A stretch of DNA of 64,000 bases from NCBI GenBank assembly GCA_963701855.1, contig CAVPBK010000009.1, forward strand, positions 458,063-522,062. Reading direction: 5' to 3'. Of the stretch, positions 49,643 to 51,048 are shown piece after piece (the stretch's first letter is position 1; each line of letters opens with the position of its first letter). This DNA comes from Nitrospirota bacterium (GTDB lineage: Bacteria; Nitrospirota; Nitrospiria; Nitrospirales; Nitrospiraceae). The notes below the pieces were generated by a model. That model did not search any database, was not told where the DNA came from, and worked only from the letters and a program-made list of their open reading frames with translations. The translations under genes were made by a program, and so were the position numbers.

Positions 49643-49829
49643 GGATCTTCTAACGGCGAGGAGCGTGCCTCTCCGCTGAAGGGCCGCACCGACGTCCGAT
49701 GGTGCCACGCCATTGACCTGCCCCCAAGTGTTAGGCCACCGGTTCAGTTCGCTTACGCCGGGAATGGTCGGCTGGAATCCTGGCTCCAGATCCGACCTGG
49801 TTTAAAGGGGGCAGCAACTGTCTTGGTTG

Positions 49830-50777
49830 TCAAGCACACTGAACCAGTTCTGTGCGCCATGGGGTCCGATGTTTCAGCATCGCATTCAGAATGATCAGCA
49901 GCTTCCGCATACAAGCGGTCAGTCCCACCTTCTTCGTCTTGCCCGCGGCGCGCAGGCGTTGGTAGAACGCACGTATGACAGGATTGAAGCGCGCCGCCAC
50001 GAGCGCGGCCATATAGAGCACGGCCCGGATCTGCGCCCGGCCGCCCCAGACCGTGCGCTTCCCGCGCAATGTCCCGCTGTCACGATTCAGTGGGGCCACC
50101 CCCACCAGCGCGGCAATCTGTTTGCCGGGCAACGTGCCAAGTTCCGGCAGCGTCGCCAGCAGCGTCGTCGTCACCACGGGCCCCACCCCGGGTGCGCTCC
50201 GCAAGAGCGCCTCCTTCTCACGCCACACGGGACTCTCCCGAATCGCCTGGGCCAAGCCGCGGTCCGTGTGGCTCAATTCCCGCTCGAGCCAGGCAATGTG
50301 GGTGCGCAGGCTCTTGCGTACCGGCTTGCCAGCCATCCCCAGGCGGTTCTTCTCCGCCGTCAGCATCTCGACGAGTTGCCGGCGACGCGTCAGGATCGCC
50401 GCCAGTGCCTGGGTCTGCTCATCCGGCAGGGGTCGCGGCTCCGGTCGCATGACCTCGGCGAAGTGCGCCAACGTCTGGGCGTCCAACGCATCGGTTTTGG
50501 CGAGCCGCCCGGTGGCTTTGGCGAAGTCGCGCACCTGTCGCGGATTGACCACGACGACCGGCACCCCGGCGGCGGCCAATACCGCCGTGAGCGGACTCTC
50601 CACCCCGCCGGTGGCTTCCAACACCACCAGCGTGGGGTGCACGGCGTTCAGACGTTCGAGCACCTGAGCAAATCCGGCCTCGTTGTTGGGAGCGGAGAAC
50701 TGCCCCTCCGGTCGGAGGGCGAGGTCCAACTGCGCCTTGGAGATATCAATACCGACAAAGACCTGAGTACTCGTCAT
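49830..50777 (-). CDS. IS110 transposase/bridge recombinase
   Basis: GID, LEATG, KTDALD (DEDD), RDSG catalytic Ser; AAGGAGG upstream. Confidence 0.95.
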
Positions 50778-50789
50778 CACGTCCTCCTT

Positions 50790-50945
50790 GGTGGCCCGGC
50801 CTTGCATGATACGGGCTCAATGGCCCACGCAACTGTTCGGGCTCGTTCCGTAGAAGGGCATGACGACCCTCGCTGCCCCACGGTCTTTGAAGACCTCGGT
50901 CACGTCGGTCTATCATGCCCGGGTTGATGATAAGCTGTATCATTG
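50790..50945 (-). ncRNA. IS110 bridge RNA (predicted; ends approximate)
   Basis: Two stem/internal-loop domains whose loop strands match the reconstructed target and donor sites. Confidence 0.85.
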
Positions 50946-51048
50946 TCGCCTTGGGCGCAAGATACAAGGTCACTTTCCCAATGGACTCCGCTTGCGCGCG
51001 TTTCAGGTCCACGAACTGCGTAAGAGGGCCACTCATACCAGTTGAGTG

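Follow-up and report, generated by a model that had tools for sequence, protein, structure and literature searches.

The locus described here lies in a window of 64,000 nucleotides (the whole stretch of DNA that was analysed) and consists of a 1156-bp element of the IS110 group, which runs from 50968 to 49813 on the - strand and has a CT core at either end. The features of the element and its immediate surroundings, other than those of its non-coding RNA, are as follows:

49813..50968, - strand: whole IS110-group element, 1156 bp including both CT cores
50967..50968, - strand: left CT core (C50968 T50967), abutting the left end in 4/4 copies
49813..49814, - strand: right CT core, from sequence and copy comparison
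50962..50966, - strand: right-donor half-site TGTAT (RD), the element's opening bases, from sequence
49815..49821, - strand: left-donor half-site ACAGTTG (LD), the element's closing bases, from sequence and copies
50969..50975, - strand: left target half-site AAGTGAC, its TGAC being nt 1-4 of an IS3-type inverted repeat
49714..49812, - strand: rest of a ~105-bp IS3-derived mini-element: right target GCCCCC..., hairpin and second inverted repeat ending GGGGGCAGGTCA
49830..50777, - strand: recombinase gene, 315 aa, RuvC-like DEDD domain and Tnp domain with Ser234 (ORF, Pfam and PDB matches)
50783..50789, - strand: Shine-Dalgarno sequence AAGGAGG, 5 nt 5' of the ATG at 50777
49828..49833, - strand: -35 hexamer TTGACA of the right end, which overlaps the TGA stop codon (49832-49830)
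50959..50964, - strand: -10-like hexamer TATCTT, the left half of a split junction promoter

The boundaries are fixed because four copies with different flanks, together with one empty site (GCATGAC-CT-GCCCCC), delimit the element. They agree with an earlier note made from the letters of the window, which had placed the element at 49813..50968 with CT at each end and, by joining the flanks and the ends respectively, had read the target as AAGTGAC-CT-GCCCC and the donor as ACAGTTG-CT-TGTAT; coordinates and strings are all in place. In longer spellings the target of the window element is AAGTGACCTGCCCC or AAGTGACCTGCCCCC, with the right flank GCCCC at 49812-49808. The layout is that of the IS110 group: 191 nt of non-coding sequence precede the ATG, 16 nt follow the stop codon and terminal inverted repeats are absent. 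The CTTGTAT with which the left end begins is present in 59/78 aligned upstream regions of related loci, counting only rows that also pass the flank and ungapped-loop filters given below.

The 315-aa protein combines the two domains typical of IS110 recombinases: an N-terminal RuvC-like DEDD domain (Pfam DEDD_Tnp_IS110, PF01548; 1.3e-28, residues 8-146) and a C-terminal Tnp domain with the catalytic serine (Transposase_20, PF02371; 2.8e-19, residues 190-273). Its best match among solved structures is the ISCro4 transposase (PDB 9t56; E 1.7e-43, residues 6-307), a likeness at the protein level, and the IS621 transposase of E. coli (PDB 8wt6) matches over residues about 6-307 with E 4.7e-40. D11, E54, D96, D99 and S234 align with residues D13, E62, D104, D107 and S243 of the IS621 chain; in native numbering the catalytic residues of IS621 are given as D11/E60/D102/D105/S241 (PMC11208158). 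All five positions are therefore kept, as had been claimed for the DEDD and Ser motifs, and architecture and catalytic residues are like those of IS621 (PMC11208160, PMC11208158, PDB 8wt6), although the HMMER alignment holds many substitutions. At the nucleotide level, a blastn search with the complete element in 5,426 E. coli genomes yielded 19 short matches, confined to the recombinase gene, and found no IS621 DNA; one of the E. coli matches (H8), considered as a possible IS621, is a broken IS110 gene.

When the two ends are joined in silico they form TTGACA-17-TATCTT, a match to the promoter consensus that arises only on joining and whose promoter activity is predicted. Both halves recur among orthologues: the -10 half is TATCTT in 30 and TATCTC in 9 of 51 distinct ends, and at the same offset the -35 half is TTGACA in 23 and TTGAnn in 39 of 52 distinct right ends. 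A split sigma-70 promoter at the circle junction, the CT core and the right-donor half-site TGTAT are likewise features of IS621; the left donor of the window element is ACAGTTG.

The genome holds four copies of the element that are 99-100% identical, three of them with the 315-aa ORF intact. Only six columns vary among all four, none within either loop domain of the RNA; the three intact copies have ORFs of equal length, do not differ in the loop domains and carry no more than 3 substitutions per 1156 bp, and in the copy on contig C13 two 1-nt insertions break the reading frame. The four insertions are flanked by AAGTGAC..GCCCCCT, CAGTGAC..GCCCCCT, CTATGAC..GCCCCCT and GAGTGAC..GCCCCCT, which gives the consensus xxTGAC-CT-GCCCCCT and thereby sequence-specific insertion; the empty site, on C6, reads GCATGACCTGCCCCCT. 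As the flanks beyond the 11-13-bp target are unrelated, the copies do not stem from segmental duplication. The element is complete and apparently recently mobile.

One could instead regard it as a genuine IS110 element that has become a fossil, its copies being relics of past transposition or segmental duplication that no longer move. The frameshifted copy would fit this, but it stands against three nearly identical intact ones; several IS fragments and degenerate IS3 copies around the sites, and a fifth, diverged bridge-RNA locus on C6 with a truncated 139-aa ORF, also speak of decay, but the promoter halves, the ribosome-binding site and the catalytic residues of the element are all intact. 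The assembled contigs of four runs contain neither a circle junction nor an excision joint at the locus, such contigs being uninformative on circle formation, while metagenome contigs end at 50972-50974 and proceed into several continuations, one of which agrees with the flank of a site lacking the element in the assembly; these varied continuations are a weak hint of insertion polymorphism. We hence consider a fossil improbable and favor an intact element. Two joints found in the run contigs are internal skips of low support, and a contig that joins 49814 to GTCATGC..., examined as a candidate excision product, corresponds to the paralogous empty site on C6. A contig from an RNA library (X15) covers 50763-50972 with 2 mismatches and runs 27 letters past the element; because it extends into the flank it may be read-through or DNA and cannot show a bridge-RNA transcript.

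The left end of about 190 nt holds two internal-loop domains with four guide segments that match the ends and flanks of the element:

50927..50943, - strand: candidate 5' stem-loop ATGATA-cagct-TATCAT, predicted from sequence and alignment
50856..50920, - strand: target-binding loop domain: basal stem, internal loop and GGTCT/AGACC hairpin, from covariation
50897..50905, - strand: left target guide ACGUGACC(G), in the same sense as left target and core C
50873..50879, - strand: right target guide GGGGCAG: 3-nt extension, GC and core guide AG, from sequence, copies and orthologues
50871..50872, - strand: target-loop handshake guide CG; C50872 pairs with donor position 7 (G)
50794..50842, - strand: donor-binding loop domain: GCCCG/CGGGC outer stem and GGGC/GCCC hairpin, from covariation
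50829..50836, - strand: left donor guide ACAGUUGC, equal to left donor and core C
50801..50810, - strand: right donor guide AU/CAU/GCAAG, pairing with CTTGTAT with G.T at donor position 12
50799..50800, - strand: donor-loop handshake guide GC; G50800 pairs with target position 7 (C)

The location of the non-coding RNA in the left end and the order of 5' hairpin, target loop and donor loop are those of IS621. The stems GGGCATGA/TCATGCCC, GGTCT/AGACC, GCCCG/CGGGC and GGGC/GCCC are all found, so that the two stem/internal-loop domains proposed earlier are present, and both thermodynamic folding and covariation agree with them. RNAfold of 50968-50778 gives a 5' hairpin and two domains at -77.4 kcal/mol (z = -3.17; 1/200 shuffles as good). 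Its optimum has a longer 5' hairpin (50967-50935) in place of the candidate stem-loop, whose extent is uncertain because the transcription start is not fixed. The optimum also partly pairs guide segments with one another.

For the comparative analysis we collected 80 related loci; the upstream alignment, made without L057 (N-terminally cut), L060 and L091 (<180 nt upstream), comprises 77 loci in 78 rows. The structure alignment further leaves out L069, L071, L074, L095 and L096 on account of length, and also L062, L089 and L078. Across its 64 sequences 96.5% of cells are paired and 17/26 pairs show compensatory change: helices 1 and 2 of the target domain are paired in 97.2% and 97.7%, with compensatory changes in 13/17 of their pairs, and helices 3 and 4 of the donor domain in 93.8% and 96.9%. 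The alignment has 178 compensatory cells; sliding the partner column brings this down to 39 or fewer, and the observed values are attained in 0/500 shuffles. The stems of both domains are thus kept by compensatory change, as in an RNA of the IS621 type. A scan of 49500-51300 with Rfam 15 at E up to 10 matched no bridge-RNA family; an sX15 match was rejected, as it lies on the opposite strand and scores below threshold (30.1 bits against a gathering score of 55). A covariance model (R1) built from the element's own clade, and as such not independent evidence, finds 7 loci in the genome.

The first loop corresponds to the target. Its 5' side carries ACGTGACC at 50905-50898, identical at 7/8 positions to the left target AAGTGACC, and its 3' side GGGGCAG is the exact reverse complement of CT and GCCCC in 4/4 genomic copies; the second loop carries ACAGTTGC at 50836-50829, which matches the right end at 8/8 positions. 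These three matches had been read in the earlier note and are confirmed on the sequence. The left target guide is indeed where that note had it, but it matches GTGACC in three copies and TGACC in the fourth, and because positions 1-2 differ among the four copies it is reliable only for target positions 3-8. It mismatches target position 2 in the window copy and core T9 in all copies, the latter a difference from IS621. Other copies with ends or flanks at odds with the loops, which the earlier note had named as a refutation, did not turn up: the flanks of 4/4 copies match the target loop.

In a 190-nt stretch of uniform base composition ~0.003 exact 8-mers, 0.011 7-mers and 0.045 6-mers are expected by chance. 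The main control against chance is the cross-comparison of guides and flanks of orthologues, for which 19/78 rows were dropped (no CTTGTAT start, 7-nt flank or ungapped loop) and duplicates collapsed to 46 non-redundant guide sets. The left-guide match run ending at the core has a mean of 4.57 with an element's own flank and 2.16 with the flanks of other elements, and runs of at least 5 matches occur in 29/46 own against 48/2060 mismatched pairs. For the right guide and its own right flank the mean is 4.37/5 matching positions, for mismatched pairs 1.51/5; at least 4/5 positions match in 33/38 own flanks and in 74/1386 mismatched pairs, and the core guide AG is present in 46/46 sets. The remaining 5/38 right guides match at 3/5 positions or fewer, and a paralogue on C5 fits its right flank poorly: its loop predicts GATCC and the flank is GTCTC. 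A natural retargeting is seen in L017, with 86% protein identity, whose guides AAGGGGCC/GGGACAG accompany the flanks CCGGGGC-CT-GTCCCC; over this distance the left guide 8-mer of the donor loop, ACAGTTGC, is unchanged and the target loops differ. Hence, as in the first loop of IS621, the 5' side equals the left target and core, and the 3' side complements the core and right target. The natural right target guide of 7 nt (core and 5) differs from the 4 nt (G77-G80) described for IS621 (PMC11208158).

The short motifs, a z of only -3.17 and the guide-to-guide pairing in the RNAfold optimum might suggest that the matches are chance similarities within a GC-rich, structured leader. Four independent matches at homologous loop positions, the own-versus-mismatched counts for the right guide and the slid-partner controls, which agree with them, make such a coincidence hardly credible, and we return to the RNA as a bridge between target and donor.

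The second loop likewise follows the IS621 pattern, with the left donor and core C on its 5' side and the complement of core and right donor on its 3' side. The own guide 7-mer followed by CT is found near the stop codon in 63/73 related loci; among 20 loci with variant left donor guides the own variant is near the stop in 14 and the consensus in 1. A paralogue on C10 with the loop ACGGUUGC ends in ACGGTTG-CT. On the 3' side, TGCAAG does lie at 50806-50801 with one G.T, as first reported, but IS621 homology favors, over this contiguous reading, a right donor guide made up of AU (50810-50809), a flipped-out CAU and GCAAG (50805-50801). In IS621 this guide is described as discontinuous, A157-U158/G161/C162-G165, and G.T at donor position 12 is a further likeness (PMC11208158). 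The gap between AU and GCAAG is three nt (CAU) here and two (U159-U160) in IS621 as described there. Alignment positions A111 and C117-G120 of this guide are invariant, and the 3' side of the donor loop covaries little because the right donor half-site is nearly invariant.

A G-U linker precedes each 3' guide and one handshake nucleotide follows it, again as in IS621; the positions of the bulged A, which is invariant, and of the G-U linkers correspond to A43/G48/A67/G72-U73 and G121/A150/G155-U156 in the account of PMC11208158. The target-loop handshake, which corresponds to IS621 nucleotides 81-82 in the same account, is C:G in 43/46 orthologue guide sets and, being near-invariant, holds little covariation information. 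The donor-loop handshake is G:C in 36, A:T in 2, U:A in 2, G.T in 3 and mismatched in 3 of the 46 sets: it is Watson-Crick in 40/46, and 4 of these are other than G:C, as befits a handshake of the IS621 type. Taken together, every feature of the IS621 bridge-RNA architecture that sequence can test is found at the locus, in line with what had been proposed for it.

It is conceivable that the choice of target rests chiefly with the protein or with a DNA structure, for example the hairpin adjoining the site, and that the loops merely copy flank-like sequence without guiding. A palindromic stretch GGTCGG..CCGACC lies beside the target, the left guide leaves target positions 1-2 and core T9 unmatched, and the 'sequence-structure dual-match logic' put forward for ISPpu10 implies specificity beyond RNA-DNA pairing (10.64898/2026.03.19.712850). 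However, covariation of guides with flanks extends over elements with 56-86% protein identity, and the homologous nucleotides are reported to base-pair with DNA in the solved IS621 complexes (PMC11208158). Being 60-95 nt inside the element, and the same in copies whose flanks differ, the loops cannot be copied flank. We therefore judge targeting without RNA guidance very unlikely, and RNA-guided target choice remains our reading.

The right target belongs to a sequence derived from another mobile element. The stretch 49714..49812 has 94% identity to the inverted repeat of an IS3-like copy and has TGACCTGCCCC at 49714-49724 on the + strand. Its IS3 identity follows from HTH_Tnp_1 (2.6e-15) on C5 and from rve (3.9e-09) and rve_3 (1.9e-16) on C6; beside the empty site L101 there is no intact IS3 gene, only a 34-codon orfA fragment. 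The fourth copy, on C12, has the 13-bp motif only, adjoining a TPP-enzyme gene, with no recognisable IS3 sequence, so that the description of the target as an IS3 repeat holds for 3/4 insertions. On these sequences, insertion in this genome prefers the initial 11-12 bp (TGACCTGCCCCC) of terminal inverted repeats of the IS3 family. We think it likely that another mobile element is what the bridge RNA naturally addresses: the target loop would specify the outermost 11-12 bp (TGAC-CT-GCCCCC) of such repeats, IS3 copies in the genome and miniature derivatives of them would serve as landing pads, and each insertion would disable an IS3 end by interrupting the repeat needed for recognition by the IS3 transposase.

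A target at the tip of an IS3-type inverted repeat sets the element apart from IS621. IS4321 and IS5075, of the IS1111 group, target the terminal inverted repeats of Tn21-family transposons. They too are IS110-family elements that home to the terminal inverted repeats of a different transposable element; in contrast to the present case, the RNA of the IS1111 group is predicted in the right end and the repeat is of the Tn3 and not the IS3 family. All insertions of ISPpu10, an IS110 element of Pseudomonas putida, are reported to lie in copies of one conserved repeat, which unlike ours is intergenic; recognition there is claimed to have an additional structural layer (10.64898/2026.03.19.712850). 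The host also differs from that of IS621, being an environmental bacterium, probably of the Nitrospirota: this label is borne by 21 of the first 25 closest orthologue loci among the matches listed, and the labels of these closest loci point to a probably Nitrospira-like host. None of the papers listed for IS110 together with Nitrospira deals, by title and abstract, with this element.

As a whole, the locus is best explained as an intact IS110-group insertion sequence of the IS621 type, to which we assign a probability of roughly 90%. The sequence comparisons establish its anatomy, copy number, target consensus, covariation, conserved catalytic residues and promoter halves; transcription, circle formation, catalysis and reprogrammability are expected from homology to IS621. 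By that homology the element would excise as a circle, and joining of the right and left ends would create a sigma-70 promoter (TTGACA, a 17-nt spacer across ACAGTTG-CT-TGTAT, TATCTT), from which a bridge RNA of ~150-180 nt would be transcribed out of the left end. Its second internal loop would hold the circle junction via ACAGUUGC and AU..GCAAG, and its first loop the genomic target xxGTGAC-CT-GCCCC via ACGUGACC and GGGGCAG. A tetramer of the 315-aa recombinase (RuvC-like D11/E54/D96/D99 and Ser234) would then exchange strands at the CT core, with the one handshake nucleotide past each 3' guide presumably complementing position 7 of the other partner.

The element is an ordinary further example of a family whose bridge RNA was first decoded in 2024, and it leaves the known picture unchanged: thousands of IS110 recombinase/bridge-RNA orthologue pairs are described as catalogued and analysed in that year (Durrant et al., PMC11208160), and 'IS110 family RNA-guided transposase' is already a name in NCBI annotation. 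'Programmable' and 'active' are properties that we infer for it. Bridge recombinases are under development as RNA-programmed tools that insert, invert and excise DNA without breaks. In this setting the locus offers a clean natural example that can be read from its letters, with four copies, an empty site, four guides, both handshakes and a split promoter, and its ~45 close relatives, in which target loops and flanks change together, form a natural reprogramming series. If the bridge RNA is in fact directed at IS3 repeats, retargeting over short distances and the natural 7-nt right target guide could make this clade a compact source of orthogonal bridge systems. That in an environmental bacterium one IS family homes into the tip of another's inverted repeat would also bear on the competition between mobile elements within a genome.

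On its sequence, the IS110-group element on the minus strand of the window reads as an IS621-type bridge-recombinase insertion sequence: the earlier note had both observed and interpreted it correctly, and every part of that reading which sequence can test agreed with it, none going against it. Transcription, circle formation, catalysis and reprogrammability of the element we infer. The element is 1156 bp long (C50968 to T49813), starting with CT-TGTATCTTGCGCC and ending with AAGACAGTTG-CT. Its coding features are:

50777-49830, minus strand: recombinase ORF, 315 aa, the sole long ORF in the sense direction
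50789-50783, minus strand: AAGGAGG, 5' of this ORF

An alternative ATG at 50807 (+10 residues) was rejected, lying within the second RNA domain and having no ribosome-binding site. The 315-aa protein is matched in Pfam by DEDD_Tnp_IS110 (1.3e-28) and Transposase_20 (2.8e-19) and, across residues 6-307, in the PDB by the transposases of ISCro4 (9t56, 1.7e-43) and IS621 (8wt6, 4.7e-40). In the PDB-search alignment its D11, E54, D96, D99 and S234 stand opposite D13, E62, D104, D107 and S243 of the 8wt6 chain: these correspond to native D11/E60/D102/D105/S241, the composite active site of IS621 in the relevant passages of PMC11208158.

RNAfold on the 191-nt leader (-77.4 kcal/mol, z = -3.17) yields a 5' hairpin and the two internal-loop domains of the earlier note, all of whose strings and coordinates hold on re-reading of the minus strand. 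In IS621, according to passages of PMC11208160 and PMC11208158, in each loop the 3' side pairs with the top strand, hence being the reverse complement of the core and right half-site, and each 3' guide is followed by two 'handshake' nucleotides. By these rules the guides are:

50905-50897, minus strand: left target guide, ACGUGACC(G)
50879-50873, minus strand: right target guide, GGG-GCAG
50872-50871, minus strand: target-loop handshake, CG
50836-50829, minus strand: left donor guide, ACAGUUGC
50810-50801, minus strand: right donor guide, AU/CAU/GCAAG
50800-50799, minus strand: donor-loop handshake, GC

In both loops the leading handshake base complements the opposite partner at its position 7 (C to donor G7; G to target C7), a feature absent from the earlier note and added here. 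Several nucleotides invariant in the orthologue alignment also have IS621 counterparts in passages of PMC11208158: bulged A10 and G15, ahead of the left target guide, correspond in position to flipped-out A43 and syn G48; A35 followed by G40-U41, ahead of the right target guide, to A67 and G72-U73; and G83, A104 and G109-U110 to G121, A150 and G155-U156.

A scan of GTDB genomes recovered 80 loci with recombinase relatives (56-86% identity), the closest being mostly labelled Nitrospirota among the titles of the matches listed. When the upstream regions of 77 relatives were aligned with that of the window, the left end CTTGTATC, the two loop domains and a GCAAG motif were readily alignable throughout. 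With 64 sequences of the two domains aligned and scored against the structure drawn from the window, 96.5% of positions are paired and 17 of 26 pairs show two-sided changes; compensatory cells number 178 versus at most 39 with partners slid by 1-3 columns, and none of 500 shuffles equalled the observed covariation values.

The guides were compared with the flanks after removal of rows without a CTTGTAT start, a 7-nt flank or an ungapped loop (19/78) and merging of duplicates, leaving 46 guide sets. Compared with the right flank of its own element, the right target guide agrees on average at 4.37 of its five non-core bases (at least 4 in 33/38; 5/5 in 22/38), as against 1.51 for flanks of other elements (at least 4 in 74/1386 pairs); the exceptions are five of the 38 with at most 3 matches, including L084 with one and L088 with two. 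The left-guide match run ending at the core averages 4.57 for own versus 2.16 for other flanks, with runs of at least 5 in 29/46 own and 48/2060 other pairs; some left guides match poorly, the run being 1 in, for example, L018, L036 and L053. The core guide is AG in all 46 sets, and the donor-loop handshake forms a Watson-Crick pair with target position 7 in 40 (G:C 36, A:T 2, U:A 2), a G.T pair in 3 and a mismatch in 3. On the donor side, 63/73 loci have their own left-donor-guide 7-mer, followed by CT, in the interval -30 to +250 nt relative to the stop codon; where the guide differs from ACAGTTG (20 loci), its own variant is near the stop in 14 and the consensus in 1. One orthologue, L017 (86% protein identity), carries ACAGTTGC, a donor-loop left guide 8-mer identical to that of the element, together with target guides AAGGGGCC/GGGACAG and flanks CCGGGGC-CT-GTCCCC, and reads as a natural example of retargeting.

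The 4.30-Mb genome (15 contigs) holds four copies of the element, 99-100% identical, whose flanks are dissimilar apart from the junctions:

copy 1: left AAGTGAC, right GCCCCCTTTAAACC
copy 2: left CAGTGAC, right GCCCCCTATAAAC
copy 3: left CTATGAC, right GCCCCCTTTAAACC
copy 4: left GAGTGAC, right GCCCCCTGAGTTG

An empty site on contig C6, GCATGAC-CT-GCCCCCTATAAACC, fixes the element boundaries to single-base precision. Copies with ends or flanks unlike the loops, which the earlier note had named as evidence against its reading, are not among these four: the right guide matches 7/7 at every occupied site, and the left guide agrees with GTGACC at three of these sites and with TGACC at the remaining one, that with left flank CTATGAC. 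Only 6 columns vary among the copies, none within the loop domains. The 315-aa ORF is kept in three; the copy on contig C13 (L003) has two 1-nt insertions at element positions 365 and 374, 9 nt apart, and is out of frame beyond roughly residue 58. The RNA domains of this copy are unaltered, so it could in principle be mobilised in trans by the other copies.

The target motif TGACCTGCCCC occurs exactly 11 times genome-wide, and with at most one mismatch 154 times versus 69 for a reversed control pattern. Several occurrences head a repeat, TGACCTGCCCCCTaTAAACCAGGTCGGATCTGGAG...; on contig C5, AAGGAGG and then the orfA of an IS3-family element (HTH_Tnp_1, 2.6e-15) come after a related repeat, TGACCAGCCCCC..., and the C6 copy has as its neighbour an ORF for an rve/rve_3 integrase, pointing toward the insertion. 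Hence, what the element targets is the outermost end of the terminal inverted repeats of IS3-family elements, and it inserts 6 bp inside the repeat. Target positions 1-2, being outside this repeat, vary among sites and are not read by the left guide. IS3 repeats are recognisable at three of the four insertions, the copy on contig C12 having only a 13-bp motif in common. In the window the repeat is part of a miniature element of about 105 bp (50972-50967 and 49812-49714) without coding sequence, consisting of both terminal inverted repeats from an IS3-family IS: the IS110 element sits inside one, and the other retains an unoccupied TGACCTGCCCC (49714-49724, plus strand) about 90 bp from the insertion. 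Such homing is known in kind: IS4321 and IS5075 of the IS110 family home into terminal repeats of Tn21-family transposons, whereas the element here homes into those of the IS3 family.

Joining the ends in silico brings together TTGACA and TATCTT with a 17-nt spacer spanning the junction:

49833-49828, minus strand: TTGACA, right end, overlapping the stop codon
50964-50959, minus strand: TATCTT, left end
50943-50927, minus strand: shorter hairpin ATGATA/TATCAT, partly conserved in the upstream alignment

At the same offsets, distinct orthologue right ends have TTGACA in 23/52 and TTGAnn in 39/52, and left ends TATCTT in 30/51 and TATCTC in 9/51. This is a candidate junction promoter by consensus match only; its position implies an RNA start a few nucleotides after 50959, in which case the RNA may lack the long 5' hairpin (50967-50935) present in the RNAfold optimum.

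A covariance model built from the 64-sequence alignment (R1) has seven genomic matches: the four copies (123.1 bits) and three further IS110-group loci (113.1, 98.0 and 95.9 bits) with their own guides, unlike those of the element:

C5:333514-333644 (L141): 314-aa ORF; left side fits, right flank GTCTC versus predicted GATCC
C10:7123-7257 (L142): 317-aa ORF; guide ACGGUUGC fits its end ACGGTTG-CT, right guide GGUUUAG fits its flank AAACC
C6:714230-714356 (L140): truncated 139-aa ORF

The Rfam family sX15 (RF02234) gives a sub-threshold match to window 50774-50932 on the plus strand, opposite the bridge RNA (30.1 bits, E 0.013). R1 in turn matches the original sX15 locus of the Xanthomonas plasmid pXCV183 on the strand opposite sX15:

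L143 1098-1223 = NC_007507.1 116397-116522, minus strand: R1 match, 59.4 bits, E 1.4e-11

Passages of Schmidtke et al. 2011 (PMC3300014) report complementarity between sX15 and asX7, Northern-blot signals for both, and 10 homologues in Stenotrophomonas maltophilia K279a. Given this complementarity and the R1 match, asX7 appears to be a bridge RNA of the IS110 kind already detected in 2011, the Rfam family modelling its antisense strand. The ORF downstream on pXCV183 is no IS110 recombinase, so that this copy may be a remnant; it adjoins an IS3-family transposase gene.

Public runs containing the stretch were available as assembled contigs only, and the contigs of four runs showed neither a circle joint nor an excision joint over window 49700-51100. 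In contigs of two runs (X1, X3) the match ends at 50972-50974 and several different continuations follow, placing the same left end and TGAC beside different flanks. One X1 continuation from 50973, taken as its reverse complement, equals the sequence flanking a TGACCTGCCCC site (L107, C12:6284-6294) that is empty in the assembly: a weak hint of insertion polymorphism, in which part of the population's genomes would have this site filled, the run possibly being the assembly's own source. The neighbourhood has many mobile elements. Upstream of the insertion lie an ORF with a terminal phospholipase A1 domain (51049-51462, minus strand; PLA1 1.6e-37) and, further on, a DDE_Tnp_1 transposase ORF (52412-52876, minus strand; 5.9e-13). 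The adjacent plus-strand ORFs at 48938-49213 (91 aa) and 49262-49642 (126 aa; no match in a Pfam search) are clear paralogues, with the common motif ...HLAAAR-YQN-ARELEAEA-EYE-AVS...SKGFH-G-L-MAA...EAKQMQ-LYA-H-AQAQ.

Thousands of IS110 recombinase/bridge-RNA pairs had already been analysed in 2024 (passages of PMC11208160), and the RefSeq product name 'IS110 family RNA-guided transposase' is in use (E. coli plasmid NZ_AP035759.1, 7378-7672), a sign of how well established the family assignment is. The present analysis contributes covariation in this clade as independent evidence, a reading of the handshake and of the promoter, the target in IS3 repeats and the census of copies.
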